The translations under genes were made by a program, and so were the position numbers. Below, one piece after another: positions 3,514 through 29,707 of a stretch of 64,000 nucleotides of DNA (positions are counted from its first letter, which is position 1; every line of letters starts with the position of its first letter). This DNA is from a phage. The notes below the pieces were generated by a model that was not told the origin of the DNA, did no database searches, and worked only from the letters and a program-made list of their open reading frames with translations. The stretch lies in sequence record PZ445530.1, one strand, 5' to 3'.

Positions 3514-5937
3514 ATGAGCATGTGGTCGTTCGATTTTGAGTCATCCGGTTTGCTGGAAGACCCAGATCTTTATTATCACTGCGGCCTGTTTAAAGAGCTG
3601 AATAAGAACCGTTTTATGCTGTTCCTTCCTCTGAATGACCGCACACACTACTCCGAGGAGGATATAGAGAAGGCCAAGAACTTTATTCTGGCAAAGAAAA
3701 CTCTTTATAAGGATTTTGAAGTTCGCATAGCAGATTTTTCGGAGTTGGAAGGTTGGCTTACAGGAAATTCCGACTGGTCACCAACAGCTTTGAACTGCCA
3801 TAACTGCTACAGTTATGACTTTATGCTGATGGAGAGATTATCCGGTATTCATTTTGATATGTTCCGTGATCCTAAATGTATGGGGACTATCAACGACCAC
3901 CAGGTTAACCTGTTTGATACGTTGGCGATGAGCCGAATCTTGTGGCCTGATCGCCCTTTACCAAAAGGTTGTCCGGACTCCGTATTCAACCCGGTTACTA
4001 AGAAAATGCAGCCTGTTGGTCCTCACGGCCTTATGGCATGGGGCTACGCCCTTGGTAACCAGAAAGTTCAAATTGATGATTGGCGCGATCTTCCGTTGTG
4101 GAAGTATGTGGATCGTGTATTCGAGGACGTTATCATCCAGGAGCTACTCTGGAAAGAGCTGGTAGCGGAATCAAAAGGTGTATTCTACGGCAAATCTGAC
4201 ATGCAGAACTTTATGTACGATCCTGCCAAAGAGAAGCCGAAAGGGTTCAAGAAGATCACCTGGAAGAACGCATTGCGCCGGGGTATGCTGCAACACTTCC
4301 TGATGGAGCTGCAGGCCCGTCAGGGTGTGTATTTTGACATAGATGGAGCTATTGCTTTACGTGACCGTTGCGATGCGTGGATGAAAGAAATCGCTGATCG
4401 TGTTGAACCACAACTGCCTTTAAAAGAGCTGTCAATGTCTCAGCGGCCCAAGTTCCCTGAAAAGCCGTTTAACCAAGATGGGACAATCTCTAATAATGGT
4501 TGGAAATGGTTAAAAGATAAGCTTGGCTATCCTGTGGACATGAGTGCTTTAGAGTTCAAAGCCCCACCTAAGCGAGCATTTACCTCTACAGGAGATGTCA
4601 GTAAGATGGGGATAAAATGGTGTGAAGAGATGGGCTGCAAAGACCACGATAAGATGGCTGATTTCTTGAGAGGCTATATTAAGGGCACCTCCACACCACA
4701 ACCTTTACCTAAAGAGCTGATGGATCAGGCAATAAGCGATCTGCAGCAGAAGCGAATGCCTGACTGCAAGATACCTATGAAAATCAGCAATCAGGACGAT
4801 ATTAAGCGATACCTGATCAGTGCTGGTTGGCTTCCGACAATGTGGAGAACTAAGGATGTAACTAAAGACAGCAAGAAGAAAGCTTTACCTGATGCAGATG
4901 TTGATGCACGAGTATATGCATATATGGACGAGCTTTTGGAGTCAGAGTATTGTGACCTAATTATCAACTTCTGGAACAAAACTGATGCTAAGTTCCAGAC
5001 AACCGTGCACAAGTTCCGAAGCTTTCCTAACTCCGAAAGGATTAAAAAGGAAGTATTCGGGAAAATACGTAGAAAAGCTAGGGCACTTATTACTTCTCCG
5101 CAACTGAAAGATACGTTTGGACACCTGTGTCCGAATCTTGAAAAATTGAACGGAGAGATGGCTAAAGATATCGTCTTATGGTTATCATTGCGAAACCGCA
5201 GATCGGTACTTGATCCAATCAAGGAGGATAAGGTTGACACTGGTCTTCTTAATCACCCACGTTTGAAGATTGACCATAAGCTTCCTGCTAAAAGCTCTGG
5301 ATTAACAAACACTTCCAGACAGAAACACAGTATTTGTGCAAACATGCCTAAACCCTCTCCTAAAGTGGTTATGGGTAAAGAGATGCGTAGCTTGTGGGGT
5401 GTTCCTCCAGGATACTTTGAGATCGGTATCGACGGGTCCAACTTAGAGCAGCTTATCGGGGCTTGGGGTGCCTTTGAGTTCGACAACGGCCTGTATTACG
5501 ATGTTGTAAGTAACGGAGACGCACACCAAAACAATGCTGAGGCATATACAAAAGTAGCAGGCAGAGAGGTGTCCCGTAACGACGGTAAACCTATCACGTA
5601 TGGGGTTATGTACGGGGCACAAAAAGATAAAGTTGCAGATATGCTGGACATCTCTCCAGAGTTGGGACAAAGGGTAATCGATGCGCTTTGGGATGCCAAC
5701 CCTGGTCTTAAGGGCCGTAAAGAGGATCTGGAGAAATTCTGGGAAGCAACGGGTAAGAAGTTTATCTACTCTTTTGATGGTCATGCCATCTGGACCCGAT
5801 CTAAACACTCTTTACTTAATGCATACCAACAGAATGGTGGTGCATCGCTGTGTGACTTGGTTGGGATACTTATGCACCACCAAATGGTGAAGCGTGGGTG
5901 GTACGATGAAGGTGTTCGTCGTATTATCTATTACCAT
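3514..5937 (+). CDS. DNA polymerase family A, exon 1 (3'-5' exo domain plus polymerase motifs through motif B)
   Basis: exo motif FDFESSGL; motif B KPITYGVMYGAQ; frame ends ...IIYYH immediately before stop, where motif C HDE is expected. Confidence 0.8.
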
Positions 5938-8595: not shown

Positions 8596-8658
8596 TACTT
8601 GACAACAGCGATAGGACCTAGTACAATGGTCCTATCAAAACGAAAGGGGACCACAACA

Positions 8659-11565: not shown

Positions 11566-11593
11566 GCCCTGCCCGAAAGGGTGGGGCATTTTT
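11566..11593 (+). terminator. rho-independent terminator
   Basis: same GCCCTGCCC-GAAA-GGGTGGGGC hairpin as at 578, followed by T-run. Confidence 0.6.
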
Positions 11594-15119: not shown

Positions 15120-15700
15120 GGGATTTCTAAAATGGATTTCCTCCTTTTGATATTTCACCGGGCTGGATATTTTAAAATTCTTAGAAAATCAGAAAATGGA
15201 TCGAAAACTAAAATGGATTTTTCAGAGTAGGCGCGACAAGCTGAATAACTCATCCTATCGTTTGCACCATATTCCAGGCCACCATTATAGATTTTCCACA
15301 CATGCTAACCTCCCTCTACTAGAACTTCCTCCACTTGCCCTTAACCTTCTATGGTAACAATCTAACCACTATCTTGAAGTTGCGGTGCAGCTTTCCAAGT
15401 ACTCGATCTGTTTTTCATTTCATGGCTTGGATTTTCTGAAAATTTTTCTCGATAAATTTCTCAGTACTCGATCTGTTTTTCGTTTTCTGAATCGGATTTT
15501 CTGGAAATCGTTCCGGATCTCGACCTGAAATTTTTGGGGACGAAATCGATTTTTCGTTTTCAGAAATGGATTTTTAAAATTTCTATATGGGAATATTTTA
15601 TGGGATACTGTTTTATAGGAAATTGTTACGGAGGGTAATTAGCATGCTAATTAAATTTATTAAATGCGAGGAGTTCTCATTTAGAATTTTGAATGATAAT
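15120..15700. repeat. AT-rich non-coding region with short direct repeats (AAATGGATTT x4, AGTACTCGATCTGTTTTTC x2)
   Basis: no ORF with SD; repeated motifs visible by eye. Confidence 0.5.
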
Positions 15701-16623: not shown

Positions 16624-17022
16624 ATGAAAACCACAACCTTTAATTTTGACAATGCCGACTTCTCTTTTTCTGATGTCAAGAACTGCCGCCGTGATCGTGG
16701 ATTTTACAAGGCTTATAATCTGGTTGGCCTGGACGATGATAATAATTTGCACGAAGTAGCGGAGATCCGGTACTATGCCGCCGCCAGCGGTAACACTAAC
16801 TACTGCGTTTTTTGGATACACGACAACAAGAACAATAAGTACGGTTATACTGGCGGCAAGGCGAGCGGTCACGGTTATGATAAAGCTAACGCAGCACTTG
16901 AGAGCGCATTAAATGCTATGGGGATCACTGCCAACGGCTGGATCTACGAAGAAGAGTTTTTGTCGGCACTTGCTGACCACCTAGGCTATAAAAAGCACAT
17001 TGTAACATGTGCCCACGAATAA
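16624..17022 (+). CDS. hypothetical protein
   Basis: 132-aa ORF, SD AAGAGGA. Confidence 0.55.
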   Translation: MKTTTFNFDNADFSFSDVKNCRRDRGFYKAYNLVGLDDDNNLHEVAEIRYYAAASGNTNYCVFWIHDNKNNKYGYTGGKASGHGYDKANAALESALNAMGITANGWIYEEEFLSALADHLGYKKHIVTCAHE

Positions 17023-17029
17023 AAAATTA

Positions 17030-17057
17030 TTGACACGCTGCAAAATTCAAGTAAACT
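17030..17057 (+). promoter_or_regulatory. sigma70-type promoter followed by 5'UTR hairpin GGCGGGG-atgttt-CCCGCC (~17068-17086)
   Basis: TTGACA-16nt-TAAACT. Confidence 0.5.
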
Positions 17058-17105
17058 AGACACAAAAGGCGGGGATGTTTCCCGCCAGCACAAAGGAAAA
17101 AGATC

Positions 17106-17510
17106 ATGAATAAGAACGTACGCCGCATCATGAACGAACTGGCAAACGATGAAAAAATTATTGACATGCATTTATTCAACATTTGCCGCCGTTGTGTAAC
17201 ATATAACAACCGCGCCGCAAAAGCGCGTGAGATGAACGCAAAAGGCACCTTAAAGCCATTCCAGGTGGTGGTAAAGGCCATTAAAGATGTAACTAATACG
17301 GCAAACCAGGTACAGGGGAACACCAACGAGAGTACCAATATTGATCCGGCTTACATCATGAAACGGATCCGGACCTGCAAGAACAAAGAGCAAGTGTATA
17401 ATATCATAGACTGGTTGGATTCTATGGGCGATGTGGTTTACAATAGGTTTTCTGCAGCTATCGAGATCCAGCTTGACAGGTTGGACGGTAAAGTACTGAA
17501 AACTTACTAA
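17106..17510 (+). CDS. hypothetical protein
   Basis: 134-aa ORF, SD AAGGAAA. Confidence 0.55.
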   Translation: MNKNVRRIMNELANDEKIIDMHLFNICRRCVTYNNRAAKAREMNAKGTLKPFQVVVKAIKDVTNTANQVQGNTNESTNIDPAYIMKRIRTCKNKEQVYNIIDWLDSMGDVVYNRFSAAIEIQLDRLDGKVLKTY

Positions 17511-17512
17511 GT

Positions 17513-17560
17513 TTATTTTTAGATGGCCTTGACTTCAGGGCCATCAATAAAGTAAACTAA
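17513..17560 (+). repeat. repeated intergenic element containing hairpin GATGGCC-TTGACTTCA-GGGCCATC and promoter-like TTGACT/TAAACT (copy 1)
   Basis: near-identical copies at ~18134-18180 and ~21853-21898; variant at ~18472-18520. Confidence 0.55.
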
Positions 17561-17591
17561 TCTCAACTAAGCGAAAAAAGGGGGCTTTAAG

Positions 17592-17711
17592 ATGAGCACT
17601 ACACGCCAATACACAAAGGTAACTATTATCGTTTGCGTTGTCGGTTACATCCTGGCGCAAATGTTAATGAGTAGCGCTAACAGTTTTGCAAAATTTTTCT
17701 TAAATTTTTAA
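17592..17711 (+). CDS. small hydrophobic peptide (39 aa)
   Basis: ATG after AAGGGGG SD; TM-like TIIVCVVGYILAQMLM. Confidence 0.35.
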   Translation: MSTTRQYTKVTIIVCVVGYILAQMLMSSANSFAKFFLNF

Positions 17712-17739
17712 TTGACAAACTAACTTAGATCGATATACT
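17712..17739 (+). promoter_or_regulatory. sigma70-type promoter
   Basis: TTGACA-16nt-TATACT; hairpin GGGAAaactTCCC in 5'UTR. Confidence 0.55.
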
Positions 17740-17790
17740 TAAACACGTAAACGGGAAAACTTCCCAGAGCACACAAAAGGAGAAAACACC

Positions 17791-18132
17791 ATGACTACTA
17801 TGACCGCCGCAGAAAAAGCTATGCAGATCGCCGCGCTGAAAAAACAGATCGCAGACCTTGAGAACAAGATCGACAACTTTGAAATCGACGAGGACAAGTA
17901 CGACGAAAACTATGATGAATGGTTAGACGAGATCTACGGCGAAATTATGATCGGAAACATTTCTTTTCTTCCGTCGCGTATCCTCAAGGAGCTAGATCCT
18001 ATCGCTTACCGCTGCGGATTTAGCGACTACATCGACAGCCTGGATATTGAGGAAGATGAAGAATACCAGGAACTACAGACAGAGTTAGAAGAAGCAAAAG
18101 AAGAGCTTGCGGAGCTGGAAGAAAACGAGTAA
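17791..18132 (+). CDS. highly acidic coiled-coil protein
   Basis: 113 aa, about one third Asp/Glu; SD AAGGAGA. Confidence 0.55.
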   Translation: MTTMTAAEKAMQIAALKKQIADLENKIDNFEIDEDKYDENYDEWLDEIYGEIMIGNISFLPSRILKELDPIAYRCGFSDYIDSLDIEEDEEYQELQTELEEAKEELAELEENE

Positions 18133-18133
18133 G

Positions 18134-18180
18134 ATTATTTTTAGATGGCCTTGACTCCAGGGCCATCAATAAAGTAAACT
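18134..18180 (+). repeat. repeated hairpin/promoter-like element (copy 2)
   Basis: ATTATTTTTAGATGGCCTTGACTCCAGGGCCATCAATAAAGTAAACT. Confidence 0.55.
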
Positions 18181-18221
18181 TTATACTGTTAACACTGAAC
18201 TAATTCAGAGGAGTTAAAACC

Positions 18222-18467
18222 ATGGCAGCACTAATCACCAAATATTATGCCCCTACCAACACCAAAAGCGCCCGTATCATGGTAAAAGGCTTCGGACGTA
18301 AAAAGGTTTACACCTGGGATTATGCCTTAGACATGGAAGACAACTACACCAACGCGATGACCGATTTTATTAATGATCTGAACACGCGGATCTTGACAAA
18401 TTATAAAATTACCGATATTGCCTATATAGGGGAAGGCGGGATCTGTTTTGTCGGTATCGTCAAATAA
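18222..18467 (+). CDS. hypothetical protein
   Basis: 81-aa ORF, SD GAGGAG. Confidence 0.55.
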   Translation: MAALITKYYAPTNTKSARIMVKGFGRKKVYTWDYALDMEDNYTNAMTDFINDLNTRILTNYKITDIAYIGEGGICFVGIVK

Positions 18468-18542
18468 GCTGTTTTTTCGGTGGTCCTGGTAGCAGGGCCA
18501 TCTATAAAGATAGTTTATCAACACAATGAAAGGAGAAAGTAC

Positions 18543-18890
18543 ATGATCAGCGGGGCAAGTTTTATTATTGGCGCTATTGCTACGGCTTTAATTGTAAACA
18601 AGATCCAATCTAAAAACGAAAAAGAGAGCAACGCGCTCACAGAATACCCATTTTGGGTATTCAACGACAATGAAGACTACATTATCAAGTACAAGAATGA
18701 GAAGGGCGACCAGGTAACACCGCGACCGATCCCGGCCTACAAGATGCAAGAAACACTATACCGCCTAAAGGCTGGAGGCGCAAAAATCGTAGACTTTTGG
18801 GGATATGATTGCAAGGATCAGGAGGTTATAAAACGGCGTATCCGGGCTATTCAGGCCAATATTGAAGTTAGCAAGGGGGGGAATATATGA
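18543..18890 (+). CDS. putative membrane-anchored protein
   Basis: ATG after AAAGGAGAAAG SD; N-terminal TM SGASFIIGAIATALIV. Confidence 0.5.
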   Translation: MISGASFIIGAIATALIVNKIQSKNEKESNALTEYPFWVFNDNEDYIIKYKNEKGDQVTPRPIPAYKMQETLYRLKAGGAKIVDFWGYDCKDQEVIKRRIRAIQANIEVSKGGNI

Positions 18891-19084
18891 AGATTAATTT
18901 TGAGAAGATTGTAAAGCGATCTCATGATTCCGAAGAGCTGCCGGAACGACGCCAACGTAACAATAAACTGAATAAGCCAAAAAGATTTGGAAAGATCTGG
19001 CGAAATCATTATGATCGTAAATTGCCTGGCCTACTTTTGGAACGTGAACGACAGGCAGAACGATACCGCCATAAAGACAAATAA
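18887..19084 (+). CDS. small basic protein
   Basis: 65 aa, Arg/Lys-rich; start overlaps upstream stop. Confidence 0.45.
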   Translation: MKINFEKIVKRSHDSEELPERRQRNNKLNKPKRFGKIWRNHYDRKLPGLLLERERQAERYRHKDK

Positions 19085-19242
19085 CAACCAACGCCCCCGC
19101 CATTGTGCGGGGCTTTTTATTTCTATCCTACGAATAGCGCCCCTGGTTGGCCCTGTAAGCGCCAAAAAGGCCCCACCTATGCAATCGCCCCCTTTAACCT
19201 GAAAACATCGCCCAGGGCCGTTTCATGGCGTTAAAAATATCA

Positions 19243-19270
19243 TTGACATCGTCAACAGGTTAGCTATACT
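19243..19270 (+). promoter_or_regulatory. sigma70-type promoter
   Basis: TTGACA-16nt-TATACT. Confidence 0.55.
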
Positions 19271-19302
19271 AACCACATCAAAGAGAGAAAGGAGTAAACG
19301 CC

Positions 19303-19563
19303 ATGCGTAAATTAAAAAATTTTGATAAAGTTGATGTTGTCCTGAATAATTTTTACTACTGCAACAACAAGGCCATTTGGTGGCGTGATAGTTCCACCGA
19401 TAAAGTCAAGGCGCGCTTTCTCCAGGGGCACTGGCAAGGCCGCCCAGTGATTAAAATCATGGGGCAATTGGTAGCGTTTAAAAATTGCCGCCGTGTTGAT
19501 GACGTTGAGGAGATTTTAAACATTTTGCGCCACAATAATTTAAAAAATAGTGTTGACAAGTAA
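19303..19563 (+). CDS. hypothetical protein
   Basis: 86-aa ORF, SD AAAGGAG. Confidence 0.55.
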   Translation: MRKLKNFDKVDVVLNNFYYCNNKAIWWRDSSTDKVKARFLQGHWQGRPVIKIMGQLVAFKNCRRVDDVEEILNILRHNNLKNSVDK

Positions 19564-19580
19564 ATCTCAATAAGTATAAT
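19553..19580 (+). promoter_or_regulatory. sigma70 consensus promoter
   Basis: TTGACA-16nt-TATAAT; hairpin GGCGGG-aaaactta-CCGCC downstream. Confidence 0.6.
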
Positions 19581-19637
19581 TAAACACACAGGCGGGAAAA
19601 CTTACCGCCACTAACAAAGAAAACAGGAGAAAATATC

Positions 19638-20262
19638 ATGACCACCGTTAACATTACCACAGGTTACAATTTATCTTTCGACGTGCTGACCGATGAACAA
19701 AAAAGAAAAAGCTATTGAAATGGTCCGCGAAAGAGAAGAACACAGCGGGGATAACTTTTTTGCAGAAAGTGTAATTGAAGACTACAAAGAACATATCTTT
19801 CCAGAGTATGGCCTTGAAGATACCAAGGTACATTGGTCCGGCTTTTGGTGCCAGGGCGACGGCGCGTCAATCAGTGCGGAAAACGTGGATTTAGAAAAAT
19901 TCTTGCGTAAAGTCAAGTCTCTGACTAAATTCCGCTCAATTCGTCACTTGTTCGGCACAATGCACGATGGCGAGCTATCCGCAAGTGTTGAGCGTGATCC
20001 ATATAGCCGCTATAGTCACGAAAACACTGTAAGCGGGTACATCGATACTACATGGCTAGACCTGACAGCCAAGCAAGAAAGTAAGGTTGAAGAGCTGGAA
20101 GAGTTGATCACCGAGAACGTACGGGAACTATCCCGCAAGGTTTACGTAGACCTGGAGCAAGCTTATCTTGAACAATTTACTACCGAAAACCTGATCGGCC
20201 TTATCGAGGCCAATGATTGGCGGTTTGATGTGGATGAATATGGAGAGATGAGTTTTTCATAA
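19638..20262 (+). CDS. hypothetical protein; reading frame interrupted, needs a +1 shift in an A6 run (~19699-19704) or the sequence has a homopolymer indel
   Basis: promoter, hairpin and AGGAGA SD serve ATG 19638, which stops after 26 codons; long ORF 19693..20262 continues in +1 frame without its own SD. Confidence 0.4.
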
Positions 20263-20270
20263 ATAAAGTG

Positions 20271-20298
20271 TTGCAATAATCTAAAAACCTGCTATATT
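20271..20298 (+). promoter_or_regulatory. sigma70-type promoter
   Basis: TTGCAA-16nt-TATATT; hairpin GGGGCAA-gacgtt-TGCCCC downstream. Confidence 0.5.
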
Positions 20299-20352
20299 AA
20301 AACTCAAGGGGCAAGACGTTTGCCCCCCACACAAAACAAAGAGGAAAACATC

Positions 20353-20733
20353 ATGAAAAACACTACTAAAGCTATTGACACCGTCATGTTTAACCTGGTT
20401 ACCTTTCGCGAGGATATGAAAGATCTTCCACGTGAAACAGTGTGCGATCACATTGAAAACTATCGCAAACTAATCAAAGAGTTGCCTTTAAAACGTGATC
20501 AGTATGCGGCTAACGCCATGCTTAATGCCATGATCAAAAAGATGATCCAGTGTGATTTAACTCTGGCCTATGACTATGCGGGTGGTCGTTTTGCAGTATA
20601 CAATCAGCCCGTGCCCGGTATGGGCACCACCGAAGAATTGCACGCGTTAAATCTGAAGCAAGATGTATGGGATAACATGCCCCGCGTGGTGGTGTGGGCA
20701 GAAAGCGGAAAGATTTACGGCGATAATTTTTAA
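20353..20733 (+). CDS. hypothetical protein
   Basis: ATG after AAAGAGGAAAA SD. Confidence 0.55.
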   Translation: MKNTTKAIDTVMFNLVTFREDMKDLPRETVCDHIENYRKLIKELPLKRDQYAANAMLNAMIKKMIQCDLTLAYDYAGGRFAVYNQPVPGMGTTEELHALNLKQDVWDNMPRVVVWAESGKIYGDNF

Positions 20734-20797
20734 TCAGGTAACAGGCGGCATATTTGCCGCCTTATTGTTAAACAGAGCTGCAAAAGAGGTACATAGA

Positions 20798-21169
20798 ATG
20801 GAATTTATTATTTTGGCTGTAGTAGTTGCCTTGTTCAACGCCTGGATAGCTGGCAAAATAGGTAGATCCGCTTTTCTATGGTTTGTTATATCTATTTTCC
20901 TGGGAGTGGTTGCAACCATTGTACTAGTTATCCTTGCAATTGTTGACAAGGATAATAATAAGAAGGGTAAAGTATTTTCCGACCTGTATGACGCCCAAAC
21001 TTTTGTTAACGCCTATTATAGTGATCTTCCGGTCTCCTTGCGCTGCAGCCTGGCGCAACAAGTTTTTGATGAGGCTAAAACCAGAGATCAAGCCCATGAG
21101 ATATGTTTAACTGAGGCGGATCGCCTATTTGAGAGGAATAGAAAATATGTGGGCCAGCCGTTTAAATAA
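20798..21169 (+). CDS. putative membrane protein (2 TM)
   Basis: ATG after AAAGAGG SD; hydrophobic segments FIILAVVVALFNAWIAG and LWFVISIFLGVVATIVLVILAIV. Confidence 0.5.
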   Translation: MEFIILAVVVALFNAWIAGKIGRSAFLWFVISIFLGVVATIVLVILAIVDKDNNKKGKVFSDLYDAQTFVNAYYSDLPVSLRCSLAQQVFDEAKTRDQAHEICLTEADRLFERNRKYVGQPFK

Positions 21170-21392
21170 TACCACGTTAATTAATCCCTTTAGTGAAGAT
21201 TTGAAGCCAGCCGCCTGGCGTGATGGATTCAATAACGAACGCTTTATTTTCAAGCCTGATCTTGAGGAATTTTATAACAATGGATCGAACAACAGCGGAG
21301 ATAATTTTTCTTGGGATGTGCGTGGTGATGGTACTCCTGGGGGCCATTGTAAACCACGTCACTACTACCAGGAGGAAAGGGGGAGACGATGA
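21147..21392 (+). CDS. hypothetical protein
   Basis: ATG after GAGGAA SD. Confidence 0.4.
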   Translation: MWASRLNNTTLINPFSEDLKPAAWRDGFNNERFIFKPDLEEFYNNGSNNSGDNFSWDVRGDGTPGGHCKPRHYYQEERGRR

Positions 21393-21508
21393 CAACCAAG
21401 GATAAGCCCCGTACCGATAAGGCGCGCCGGGTTATGGTATGGCTTGAGATCATCGCCCTTGAAATATTGCTAGGCGTAGGGATGTACTTTATCGCTGTAA
21501 GTAACTAA
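21389..21508 (+). CDS. small membrane peptide (39 aa)
   Basis: ATGA overlap with upstream stop; GGAGG SD; hydrophobic C-terminal half. Confidence 0.35.
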   Translation: MTTKDKPRTDKARRVMVWLEIIALEILLGVGMYFIAVSN

Positions 21509-21563
21509 GAACGGCCCCCGATCATGGGGGCCTATCTTTTTAAAAAATTTCCCTTTCAGGGTG

Positions 21564-21591
21564 TTGCAATCCGGTCCGCAATATGGATAAT
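21564..21591 (+). promoter_or_regulatory. sigma70-type promoter
   Basis: TTGCAA-16nt-GATAAT; hairpin CGGGGaaacaTCCCCG downstream. Confidence 0.5.
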
Positions 21592-21650
21592 AACAATCAA
21601 CGGGGAAACATCCCCGCCACACAAACAAAAGCCCGAAGAGGAGAAAGAAG

Positions 21651-21850
21651 ATGAGCAACAATATCCGCGTTATTAACTTCAAAAAGAAGAAAAAATTGCC
21701 GTGCTGATTGACGGTCAAGAAATCTTCAAGGGCGACTATGAAGATCATCAAACGGCGATTAGTATCACTCGCGTGATTGGTTATCATAATTTCTACCCCC
21801 AAGGCGCTGAGGCAGCAGTTAAACGAATCAAAGAGATTGTAGGCCTGTAA
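21651..21850 (+). CDS. hypothetical 66-aa protein requiring a -1 shift at AAA-AAG (~21681-21687), or sequence indel
   Basis: ATG with GAGGAGAAAG SD stops after 18 codons; -1 frame continues ...EEKIAVLIDGQEIFKGDYEDH... to stop at 21850. Confidence 0.4.
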
Positions 21851-21852
21851 AA

Positions 21853-21898
21853 TTTATTTTTAGATGGCCTTGACTTCAGGGCCATCGATAAAGTAAAT
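21853..21898 (+). repeat. repeated hairpin/promoter-like element (copy 3)
   Basis: TTTATTTTTAGATGGCCTTGACTTCAGGGCCATCGATAAAGTAAAT. Confidence 0.55.
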
Positions 21899-21943
21899 TT
21901 AAACCCTGTTAAAATACCACGCAGTTAACAAGGAGTGATAGAC

Positions 21944-22243
21944 ATGTTTATCCAGGCTAATAATCTTTATTTCTTTGATGGTCAGATCGTAGATGGTGTG
22001 GAAGTGGAGATCACCGGGTGCCCTGGTGGTCAGGCTATGACTTTCCGGAATAATGCCTTTGATGATTCTCATATCGTTATGAGAATGGAAGTTACGAAGC
22101 TGGACGACAAGAAAACACTTATTGACTATTCTGTGAAAGATCATCCAGACTACCACATGATCTATGGTGATTTGTGCATTGTTGACCGTGACAAGGTGGG
22201 CGGCATTGTGATCGCTATTGTGAACGATGTTTTCTCAAACTAA
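21944..22243 (+). CDS. hypothetical protein
   Basis: ATG after AAGGAG SD. Confidence 0.55.
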   Translation: MFIQANNLYFFDGQIVDGVEVEITGCPGGQAMTFRNNAFDDSHIVMRMEVTKLDDKKTLIDYSVKDHPDYHMIYGDLCIVDRDKVGGIVIAIVNDVFSN

Positions 22244-22260
22244 TTTCAGCAGGTGATTTT

Positions 22261-22611
22261 ATGAAAGTAAAACTATATTACCTTAATGAGCTTAACCCCC
22301 TTGCCCAGGTCCGCGCCCTGGCTAATACCTTGATTTGTGAGAAATCTGTATATTGTGTTGAGCTTAACGCCATGCGTGAACGTCTCAAAGGTGGTTACTT
22401 TGACATCCATGCTGCAATCAACGGCCTGAATATGGAATTTATCCGCTTACGTAACAACAGCCGGAATCTGGCAAGAATGGAACAAGATCCGGCCCACCTT
22501 CGTAAGCTGGTTATTGAAAATCATCTGATGTTCAATGCCGAGGGTGATTATTACCATTTTCACCGCAAACGTTGGTACCGTGGCGGCAATACAAGCAAGA
22601 ATGCAAAATAA
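22261..22611 (+). CDS. hypothetical protein
   Basis: 116-aa ORF. Confidence 0.5.
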   Translation: MKVKLYYLNELNPLAQVRALANTLICEKSVYCVELNAMRERLKGGYFDIHAAINGLNMEFIRLRNNSRNLARMEQDPAHLRKLVIENHLMFNAEGDYYHFHRKRWYRGGNTSKNAK

Positions 22612-22729
22612 GGCCCCTAGCAGGGCCTGCAGCGATATAATCACATAAAGGCTATGCGGTTGCATGGCCTTTATTATTTTAGCGTTACAGCGACCCCTAA
22701 GGCGCTTAAAAAATTTTTTAAAGAAGTAC

Positions 22730-23412: not shown

Positions 23413-23466
23413 ATAAATCAAAGGGGGGCAACAAGCCCCCCACCAACCACAAAGAGGATAAAAATC

Positions 23467-23646
23467 ATGGCTATTATTGCAAAGACTGAGATCGTAGGCT
23501 TAGATTCTATTCTCCTCGCATATGAGGAAGCTATAGAAATGTATGTGGTTTCCTATGGTGAGTATATTCGTGAATATAAATCTATTGATCTGGCTTTTGA
23601 ATGTTATATTCGCCAGGTAAATAAAGCATATGATGATTATCGTTAA
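23467..23646 (+). CDS. hypothetical small protein (59 aa)
   Basis: ATG after AAAGAGGATAAAA SD; below track cutoff. Confidence 0.45.
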   Translation: MAIIAKTEIVGLDSILLAYEEAIEMYVVSYGEYIREYKSIDLAFECYIRQVNKAYDDYR

Positions 23647-23652
23647 AATAGT

Positions 23653-23680
23653 TTGACAACAATTACAAATCGGGTAGAAT
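23653..23680 (+). promoter_or_regulatory. sigma70-type promoter
   Basis: TTGACA-16nt-TAGAAT. Confidence 0.55.
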
Positions 23681-23731
23681 GTATTTCGTAGGGCGGCAAT
23701 GATGCCGCTCACAACTAAAAGAGAGATCATC

Positions 23732-23926
23732 ATGGCGCTTAAAAAACTAACAAGCAATACTCGTTGGGATGAAATCGACGGGGAAGTTTACATTTTTGCC
23801 CGTAAACCAGGGGATCAAAAATGGTCAAAGGCTTTTACTTGCCATCCTGCAACAATAGATCTGATAAAAAGTCAAGGACTACGTGAAGCAGTAGCAAGAA
23901 GTTTACTGATCCCTTGTAAAAATTAG
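23732..23926 (+). CDS. hypothetical protein
   Basis: ATG after AAAAGAGAG SD. Confidence 0.5.
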   Translation: MALKKLTSNTRWDEIDGEVYIFARKPGDQKWSKAFTCHPATIDLIKSQGLREAVARSLLIPCKN

Positions 23927-23927
23927 T

Positions 23928-23955
23928 TTGACAACAGTCAACAATCTGGTAAAGT
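23928..23955 (+). promoter_or_regulatory. sigma70-type promoter
   Basis: TTGACA-16nt-TAAAGT. Confidence 0.5.
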
Positions 23956-24003
23956 GTACTACATAGCGCGGGAATACTTCCCGCCATTAATGAGGGTAAT
24001 TTA

Positions 24004-24141
24004 ATGAAAACTTTCAACGCAACAGCCTCGACAATTGGTTATATTATTACAGTACAAGCCGTGGATCTGGTAGCAGCAGCAAACAAGATTAAAAAGATGA
24101 TTCCGCCAGGTAGTGAATTTTCCGTTTGGGAAGTAAAATAA
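24004..24141 (+). CDS. hypothetical small protein (45 aa)
   Basis: ATG after TGAGGG SD. Confidence 0.4.
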   Translation: MKTFNATASTIGYIITVQAVDLVAAANKIKKMIPPGSEFSVWEVK

Positions 24142-24144
24142 ATC

Positions 24145-24172
24145 TTGACAATAATTTATTACTTGATAGACT
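24145..24172 (+). promoter_or_regulatory. sigma70-type promoter
   Basis: TTGACA-16nt-TAGACT. Confidence 0.5.
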
Positions 24173-24224
24173 GTATTTCGTAGTGCGGGGAAATAAGGCA
24201 ACGCCCATTAATGAGGGTAGAATC

Positions 24225-29552: not shown

Positions 29553-29707
29553 TACTGCGCTCCTTGGGTAATAATACTGTATGTAAAACTTTAACCAGAG
29601 ATGTGAATAACGCCCCAAAACACACCGATAGCGCTAAAACAGACAAGGCCATCATTAAAGCTTCAGTAAAATCAGTCACTCCTCACCTCTTGTTAGTCAC
29701 TATACTG

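Follow-up and report, generated by a model that had tools for sequence, protein, structure and literature searches.

What does a short repeated hairpin that also resembles a promoter do between the early genes of a phage? The question is raised by the 64,000-nucleotide stretch of phage DNA analysed here (sequence record PZ445530.1, hereafter the window), in which a sequence-only reading had picked out three near-identical copies and one variant of a hairpin element with sigma-70-like hexamers, each upstream of a small gene. The element is a real and strongly conserved sense-strand RNA hairpin of the early operons of rV5-like phages, and is itself undescribed. By its likeness to the early sites of phage T7, it is most likely an RNase III-type processing or stabilizing signal. 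We consider it somewhat more likely than not that the whole is a composite intergenic punctuation of rV5-like early operons, in which an RNase III-type hairpin is combined with a weak promoter.

The repeated element

The 24-nt core GATGGCCTTGACTTCAGGGCCATC is found at 17522, 18144 (with one mismatch) and 21863, although none is expected (100 shuffles). The three near-identical copies span 17512-17558, 18134-18180 and 21853-21899, and the variant spans 18469-18515. A repeat search groups four slightly longer, 51-nt copies, which start at 17508, 18130 (96% identity), 21849 (92%) and, for the variant, 18465 (69%). A covariance model of the element family recovers exactly these four sites in the 64 kb window, all on the + strand, and nothing more, so that the repeat is real. 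With the same model, no further or degenerate copies were found in the window, in T7 or in distant loci, and a core match with three mismatches at 29644 is unsupported by it. The copies all begin at the stop codon of the gene before them, and 27-44 nt separate their ends from the ATG of a small gene (17592, 18222, 18543 and 21944), which bears out the position first described for the element.

When the + strand is folded as RNA, the entire ~50 nt form one two-tier hairpin of ~22 bp. The lower stem is AU-rich and comprises 10 bp, and in it the T-run pairs with AAAGTAAACT, i.e. AAAGTAAAC(T). Above it follow a 2x3 internal loop, a 10-bp upper stem (GAUGGCCUUG/CAGGGCCAUC) with one U.G pair, and a tetraloop cap. 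The minimum free energies of the four copies range from -21 to -27 kcal/mol, with z scores from -6 to -7.8. The sequence-only reading had described a 7-bp stem with a 9-10-nt loop, which under-reads the structure. It had placed the -35 hexamer in the hairpin loop; of TTGAC, only the AC is located there, while the upper stem is topped by the TTG, and the 3' strand of the lower stem is provided by the "-10" hexamer.

Copy 1 (17508-17558, + strand) begins with the stop codon TAA at 17508-17510. Its lower stem pairs 17510-17519 with 17549-17558, the internal loop is made up of 17520-17521 and 17546-17548, and the upper stem pairs 17522-17531 with 17536-17545 around the tetraloop ACTT (17532-17535). 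The promoter-like hexamers are TTGACT (17529-17534) and TAAACT (17553-17558), and the predicted RNase III cut falls at 17548/17549. Copy 2 (18130-18180, +) has its TAA at 18130-18132, the two-tier hairpin at 18132-18180 with the tetraloop ACTC, the hexamers TTGACT at 18151-18156 and TAAACT at 18175-18180, and a predicted cut at 18170/18171. Copy 3, the variant (18465-18517, +), has its TAA at 18465-18467 and folds over 18465-18517 with the tetraloop GTAG. Its upper stem, GGTGGTCCTG/CAGGGCCATC, contains two G.U pairs, the -35 hexamer is absent (CTGGTA is found instead), a -10-like hexamer GATAGT is kept, and the cut is predicted at 18505/18506. Copy 4 (21849-21900, +) overlaps a TAA at 21848-21850 and folds over 21850-21900 with the tetraloop ACTT, the hexamers TTGACT (21870-21875) and TAAATT (21894-21899), and a predicted cut at 21889/21890.

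The element is conserved elsewhere, in 121 phage records, nearly all of them Vequintavirus, usually with three copies detectable by BLAST in each. When metagenomes were scanned with a looser pattern, four contigs of the Vequintavirus type were added, none of them with a new variant. The 14-base core GGGCCATCNATAAAG, used on viral contigs, gave 120 mostly chance matches and was uninformative, and Rfam covariance models gave no match at the four sites even at E <= 1. A search for related loci with the 113-aa protein encoded in this region returned one Vequintavirus in IMG/VR, and distant relatives without the element. One distant relative of the locus of the 113-aa gene (L125) contains, at 5436-5497 and just after an open reading frame (ORF), a 21-bp intergenic hairpin (-21.4 kcal/mol, z -4) that matches the covariance model weakly (13.6 bits, E = 5.6); it may be an analogous processing site or a terminator.

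The existing annotations are in conflict. In GenBank, the Murica record (KT001917) calls two copies "terminator", whereas the Gotham record calls the element "promoter". The rV5 genome paper tabulates 33 promoters and 20 terminators, and the element is not among them (PMC3606486, Table S4).

Selection on the sense-strand RNA

The comparison set consisted of 41 distinct 59-nt copies from 17 genomes, that of the window and 16 further ones. The two-tier structure accounts for standard pairs in 94.6% of the cells, compared with 35-56% when the 3' partners are slid by 1-3 columns. In the upper helix all cells (100%) are paired; three pairs vary, by one-sided changes only and always via wobble (A-U/G.U, C-G/U.G and U.G/C-G/U-A). 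In the lower helix, five pairs have changes on both sides. One of them is G-C in copy 1 and A-U in copy 4, and canonical and variant copies differ by U-A versus C-G and by A-U versus U-A. The covariation score of 0.168, compared with 0.110 in shuffles, was reached by none of 500 shuffles. The element is also more constant than its surroundings, with 13 variable columns of 141, as against 43 of 114 in the adjacent 5' untranslated region (UTR; p = 5e-8) and 163 of 676 in the flanking coding sequence (p = 4e-5).

The pairing is specific to one strand. One U.G pair is invariant and several G.U pairs are present, and the other strand would have A.C mismatches in their place. As a result, all 41 copies fold better on the + strand, with means of -23.3 and -14.4 kcal/mol for the two strands, and for the variant the difference is even larger (-24.3 on the + strand, -9.0 kcal/mol on the - strand). 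Scores of the covariance model are likewise 71-84 bits on the + strand and 30-43 bits on the - strand. Taken together, the wobble-only changes, the compensatory changes and the strong asymmetry between the strands show that it is the RNA of the + strand that is under selection.

The variant, which occurs in two haplotypes, is conserved throughout the genus with its hairpin whole and without a -35 hexamer, and the hairpin therefore has a role that is independent of the promoter. The sequence-only reading had suggested that hairpin formation and promoter use may be mutually exclusive. For a DNA hairpin this is not supported, and the wobble pattern, the folding of the + strand and the variant all point to the sense RNA. 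Nor is there a basis for such a switch at the RNA level, since a transcript that starts at the embedded promoter would not carry the hairpin.

Resemblance to RNase III processing sites

All four copies lie between a strong sigma-70-type promoter and the next canonical terminator, and are thus transcribed within polycistronic early mRNA. In the early mRNA of T7, sites for host RNase III have a comparable location. For comparison, we folded the T7 intergenic regions with R0.3, R0.5, R1, R1.1 and R1.3. The T7 sites fold into a lower stem, an internal loop, an upper stem of 9-10 bp and a tetra- or pentaloop, and the topology of R0.5, R1, R1.1 and R1.3 is that of the element. R1 has a 2x3 internal loop and a dot-bracket topology identical to that of the element, and in R1.1 a tetraloop caps an upper stem of 10 bp. 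Like the element, the T7 hairpins begin directly after the upstream stop codon.

Substrates of E. coli RNase III typically comprise two helical turns, with at least 11 bp required between the tetraloop and the cut. With an internal loop, cleavage is confined to a single strand, and a 3' hairpin with a protective effect remains. The distal box is canonically UA/UG, and a G-C pair at position 2 of the proximal box is an antideterminant that blocks binding (Pertzev and Nicholson, PMC1540722). The element conforms to this description. The four copies and the 41 distinct homologues have 10 + 10 bp, i.e. a helix of about 20-22 bp or two turns, with the 2x3 loop directly under the 10-bp upper stem. 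The box positions were taken from the wording of PMC1540722 rather than from its figure. Counted from the loop, pairs 2 and 3 of the canonical copies are U-A and U.G, as in T7 R1.1, and pair 9 is A-U, or G.U in the variant, with no G-C. The copies are intercistronic, as they lie within early units and abut the upstream stop codon.

If the distance of 13 nt from the loop in the mapped T7 R1.1 cut (CCUUUAU|G) is transferred to the element, the predicted cut falls at the end of the 3-nt strand of the internal loop, in the context CAAU|AAAG, or CUAU|AAAG in the variant. Host RNase III would then cleave 13 nt past the tetraloop, after CAAU, UAU or GAU on the 3' strand of the internal loop, much as it does at the T7 early sites R0.3 to R1.3. 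The upstream cistron would thereby end in a hairpin that protects its 3' end, and the downstream cistron would be freed. The element was also considered as an RNase E site, and rejected as such because its AU-rich tracts are base-paired.

A possible embedded promoter

Three copies have the sigma-70-like hexamers that were originally described: a T-run (about -43 to -52) precedes TTGACN, and TAAAYT follows after a spacer of 18 bp, with 9 of the 12 consensus positions matched (TTGACT-18-TAAACT or TTGACT-18-TAAATT in the window). Among 32 canonical sequences, the loop reads ACTC, ACAC, ACTT, ACGC, ACCC or ACAT. Loop positions 1-2, the A and C of TTGAC, are thus invariant, whereas positions 3-4 take six states. 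In the phi92-like phage PD114, the corresponding place is occupied by a promoter without a hairpin, TTGCAA-16-TAAACT, whose -10 region has the sequence AATAAAGTAAACT of the element, and TAAACT is partnered with a perfect TTGACA at 17030 in the window. In the Gotham record, the promoters at the element sites were predicted by PhagePromoter. The odds that the three copies are promoters appear roughly even, and the promoter would be weak if active.

In the composite reading, the same DNA would, in three of the four copies, probably act as a weak to moderate early promoter, from which transcription would start afresh into the small gene that follows. The -35 hexamer would have its variable part in the tetraloop, the sole part of the hairpin that is free of the pairing constraint. 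The element would then be an economical packing of two signals, and not a switch.

Several observations weigh against the composite reading. A match of 9 out of 12 arises by chance in ~5% of 50-nt stretches (36 were found in 9 kb, with 19 expected). The spacer has 18 bp, compared with 16 bp in nearly all strong promoters of the region. The TTG, the T-run and TAAACT are all accounted for by base pairing alone; since the lower stem is formed by the T-run and the "-10" with each other, the promoter resemblance may in part be a by-product of the structure. The variant does without a -35 hexamer. On the RNA side, its distal box is U-A, C-G, with C-G in place of U.G, albeit as in T7 R0.5, and the close kinship of the genomes and the paralogy of the copies leave few independent covariation events. 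Finally, we found no paper on Vequintavirus transcript mapping in the literature, and both cleavage and promoter activity are what we infer from the DNA.

N4-type hairpin promoters have 5-7-bp stems and 3-nt loops, and need a phage RNA polymerase. A hairpin promoter of this type, for a virion RNA polymerase, was rejected for the element, which has a 10-bp stem and a 4-nt loop; moreover, the rV5 group is described as relying on host RNA polymerase (PMC3606486, PMC7344957).

Alternative explanations

It is conceivable, if doubtful, that the element is a dual-coded insulator of 50 nt, which acts as a sigma-70 promoter in the DNA and as an RNase III site in the RNA, with the hairpin present in read-through transcripts only. 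Read-through RNA would then be cut within ~17 nt of the promoter-initiated start, the downstream gene would receive a nearly identical 5' UTR by either route, and each small early gene would be an autonomous and portable expression module. Relatives with the -10 hexamer in the loop (in the loci L146 and L147, and at 8599 in the window) would follow the same principle.

Such composites were noted as follows. At 8599-8640 of the window, TTGACA-17-TACAAT has its -10 hexamer in the loop of a 9-bp hairpin (GATAGGACC/GGTCCTATC; -15.3 kcal/mol, z -3.2), a simple single-stem case of the same packing, applied to the -10. In Klebsiella phage phi1_175008, the TATAAT of TTGACT-16-TATAAT is the loop of a two-tier hairpin (-26.7 kcal/mol). 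In Serratia phage ChuuTotoro, one two-tier hairpin, which contains CATAAAG, directly follows a stop codon, and another hairpin encloses CATAAT. The analogous intergenic composites from other genera are located at 720-790 of L146, and at 478-548 and 1510-1585 of L147.

In our view rather unlikely is a transcription attenuator or terminator fused to a promoter, as proposed for the promoter-early stem-loop (PeSL) cassettes: the hairpin would stop or reduce read-through, and the promoter would restart transcription. The layout is that of a PeSL, with a stop codon, an AT-rich tract, a stem-loop over the -35, a -10, a Shine-Dalgarno (SD) sequence and an ATG, and the Murica annotation of two copies as terminators agrees with it. 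One PeSL stem-loop cut lacZ expression as much as rrnB T1 (PMC2839356), but such a drop is also expected from RNA cleavage. The element lacks a U-tract after both the upper stem, which is followed by AAUAAAGUAAACU, and the lower stem, and it is therefore not an intrinsic terminator. The scan for terminators omits all copies, yet it finds true terminators at 19095, 20743, 21513 and 22645. An intrinsic terminator was accordingly rejected, the 3' flank being AATAAAGTAAACT, and the initial view that the T-run precedes the stem, and that the element is not a canonical terminator on either strand, was right. A conserved lower stem with an internal loop would not be required for a terminator either.

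The sense-strand hairpin could also have another role, without RNase III or a promoter, as a 3' stabilizer once other nucleases have cut, a site for a phage RNA-binding protein or a modulator of downstream translation. The RNA structure is well supported, the variant hairpin matters without a -35, and the neighbouring genes are all of unassigned function, which leaves room for a dedicated binding protein. The two-turn helix, the internal loop 10 bp below the tetraloop and the UA/UG distal box are, however, specifically the design of the T7 RNase III sites, and a 22-bp helix in E. coli mRNA is a default RNase III substrate unless antideterminants are present. We consider a role of this kind clearly unlikely.

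Control of a sigma-70 promoter at the DNA level is less credible still, and appears highly unlikely. The inverted repeat would be the operator of a dimeric regulator from phage or host, or would form a cruciform, driven by supercoiling, that hides the -35. In its favour, the -35 is the centre of the dyad symmetry, the flanking coding DNA is less conserved than the element, and the top strand folds favourably as single-stranded DNA (-11.7 kcal/mol). However, the substitutions preserve pairing only if G.U is allowed and only on the + strand, and this wobble-dependent, strand-specific pairing argues against both a cruciform and an operator. The variant changes 3 of 10 bases in one arm and none in the other and loses the -35, yet it is found genus-wide. 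With regard to an operator, the half-site centres are 17 bp apart and hence not on one face of the helix; a cruciform would be disfavoured by the G.T and A.C mismatches and by the internal loop.

A selfish or passive repeat without regulatory role, such as a miniature mobile element or a recombination linker, is very improbable: copies do lie at the ends of two deletions and of one horizontally moved module, and the loop variants tend to be common to the copies of one genome, but the same four orthologous positions are filled in ~120 genomes with the two deletions as singletons, purifying selection on pairing would not be expected, and no extra insertions, target-site duplications or transposase were seen. 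A mobile element of the type of miniature inverted-repeat transposable elements was rejected on account of these fixed orthologous positions.

Recombination between the copies

The copies are direct repeats of 50 bp, and are therefore substrates for homologous recombination that deletes or moves early-gene cassettes. Two deletions of this kind are found, both singletons among ~121 records. In phage ECP26, the left flank of copy 1 is joined via a single element to the right flank of copy 2, with loss of the 39-aa gene, a promoter and the 113-aa gene. In phage 241Ecol014PP, a chimera of copies 2 and 3, with a canonical 5' part and a variant 3' part, reads TTGACA-17-GATAAT, and the 81-aa gene is lost. 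The loop variants that are often common to the copies within a genome suggest gene conversion.

A third event crosses a subfamily border. KKE7M, a phi92-like Justusliebigvirus of a different subfamily, carries a 474-bp module that corresponds to 17711-18184 of the window, at a place where its sister phage PD114 has an unrelated gene. On the left, the crossover falls within the spacer of a sigma-70 promoter that is shared, and on the right within the shared AATAAAGTAAAYT, so that the module ends inside the element. These events show that the element occasionally acts as a recombination linker, as a side effect. Other KKE7M homology blocks begin or end at a separate set of repeats in the window, three promoter cassettes of ~56 nt (AAAATAGTTTGACAAC...TAGAAT...GTAGGGCGGC) at 23645-24192.

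Genomic setting

From 17000 to 22500, the window shares 93-96% identity with over 110 genomes of Vequintavirus (rV5, FV3, Murica, FFH2 and others); this part is the counterpart of the minus-strand early-gene cluster of rV5 at ~110-116 kb. Its genes are all small, on the + strand of the window and of unassigned function. They are grouped in short units. At the start of each is a sigma-70 promoter close to the consensus, in most cases TTGACA-16-TAtACT, with an A/T-rich tract before it and a hairpin in the 5' UTR; at the end is a canonical terminator, a hairpin with a T-run.

On the + strand, the strong sigma-70-type early promoter TTGACA-16-TAAACT at 17030-17057 gives a transcript that must read through copy 1. 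The transcript from the strong early promoter TTGACA-16-TATACT (17712-17739, +), which is also the left edge of the module in common with KKE7M, reads through copies 2 and 3 and ends at the canonical intrinsic terminator CCCCGCC...GCGGGG with its T-run (19095-19122, +). Copy 4 is read through from the early promoter TTGCAA-16-GATAAT (21564-21591, +), and its unit ends at a canonical intrinsic terminator at 22645-22684 (+). The genes that follow the copies, all on the + strand, encode proteins of 39 aa (copy 1; 17592-17711, phrog_16391), 81 aa (copy 2; 18222-18467, phrog_3199), 115 aa (variant copy 3; 18543-18890, phrog_12734) and 99 aa (copy 4; 21944-22243, phrog_7366). None has an assigned function, and all flanking genes are of "unknown function" in PHROGs.

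Downstream of every strong early promoter, the 5' UTR begins with a short hairpin rich in GC (e.g. CGGGAAAACTTCCCAG and GGCGGGAAAACTTACCGCC), and then come a CACA/AC-rich tract and an SD sequence. These leaders lie at 17058-17105, 17740-17790, 19581-19638, 20299-20353, 21592-21651 and 23413-23466. Leader hairpin and AC-rich tract look like a conserved design, perhaps a 5' stabilizer.

Some further observations concern the window and its relatives. Compared with FV3, FFH2 and Murica, two early genes have a frameshift in an A-run, that for a 207-aa protein (19639-20262) by one extra A at ~19700, and that for a 66-aa protein (21652-21850) by one missing A at ~21690; these are either homopolymer sequencing errors or real pseudogenes. 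The ORF-free ~330 bp at 15360-15690, with three spaced repeats of ~65-74 nt (TTTC..GTACTCGATCTGTTTTTCGTTTTC..GGATTTT; families D3/D4), are probably the "non-coding" box of the rV5 map, and possibly a replication origin or iteron array. The strong terminator GCCCTGCCCGAAAGGGTGGGGC with a T-run is present in two copies, at 578-604 and 11566-11592, which correspond to the rV5 terminators t232 and t213. Lastly, the region is 94-95% identical to E. coli rV5-like phages in 17 GenBank records (MG0656xx) titled "Campylobacter phage", with C. jejuni as host, and mislabelling or contamination seems likely.

Implications

The analysis resolves the conflicting database annotation of the element as "terminator" or "promoter". 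It extends two themes to the rV5-like phages, a large group of therapeutic-candidate coliphages, with hints in phi92-like phages: the T7-style punctuation of early mRNA by RNase III, and PeSL-style cassettes of promoter and stem-loop that double as recombination linkers. The predictions are exact and cheap, with four cleavage positions and three start sites. If confirmed, they would help to define portable early-gene expression modules, and to explain the loss of small early genes and their exchange between phage subfamilies.

Comparison with known systems

Among the kinds described so far, T7 RNase III signals and PeSL cassettes come closest to the element, which is not a new mechanism. In comparison, intrinsic terminators, including bidirectional ones, share with the element a GC-rich hairpin, A/T-run flanks and the intergenic location. 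On both strands of the element, however, the T-run is 5' and an A-rich run is 3' of the stem, which is the inverse of a bidirectional terminator.

The T7 RNase III signals are likewise repeated intergenic elements of ~50-60 nt in the early operon of a coliphage, transcribed by host RNA polymerase. They share the U-A/U.G distal box beside the closing pair, and the 13 nt from the loop to the cut on the 3' side, which is predicted in the case of the element. Overlap with promoters is also found in T7, where phi1.1A and phi1.3 lie within the lower stems of R1.1 and R1.3. In contrast to these similarities, there is no sequence homology between the T7 signals and the element, the lower stem of the element is almost purely A-U/G.U, its overlapping promoter-like site is of the host sigma-70 type with the -35 in the loop, and its phage is an unrelated myovirus (Vequintavirus).

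PeSL cassettes were described in the T4-like phages RB49/phi1, PST/T4 and nt-1/KVP40. Their five described subclasses include stem-loops that overlap the -35 or the -10, and the authors also reported stems with G-T pairs, AT-rich tracts that contain the upstream stop codon, and cassettes that recombine with each other (PMC2839356, PMC4122927). The element has the same sequence of an upstream stop codon in an AT-rich tract, a sigma-70-like -35 and -10, a G-T-paired stem-loop, and then SD and ATG. The series TAA, T-run and TTGACN-18-TAAAYT is present in three copies but, for lack of a -35, not in the variant. Of the two promoter boxes, the -35 falls in the upper stem and loop and the -10 in the lower stem. 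Both kinds are repeated among small non-essential early genes, and both mark borders at which close relatives differ by a deletion or an exchange, although for the element such events (ECP26, 241Ecol014PP and the border of the KKE7M module) are rare. The element differs from PeSLs in having only four copies at fixed positions instead of dozens, a weaker promoter (18-bp spacer, 9 of 12 matches), and a two-tier hairpin of 22 bp with neither a GGGG/CCCC tract nor a U-tract, and in belonging to another phage lineage.

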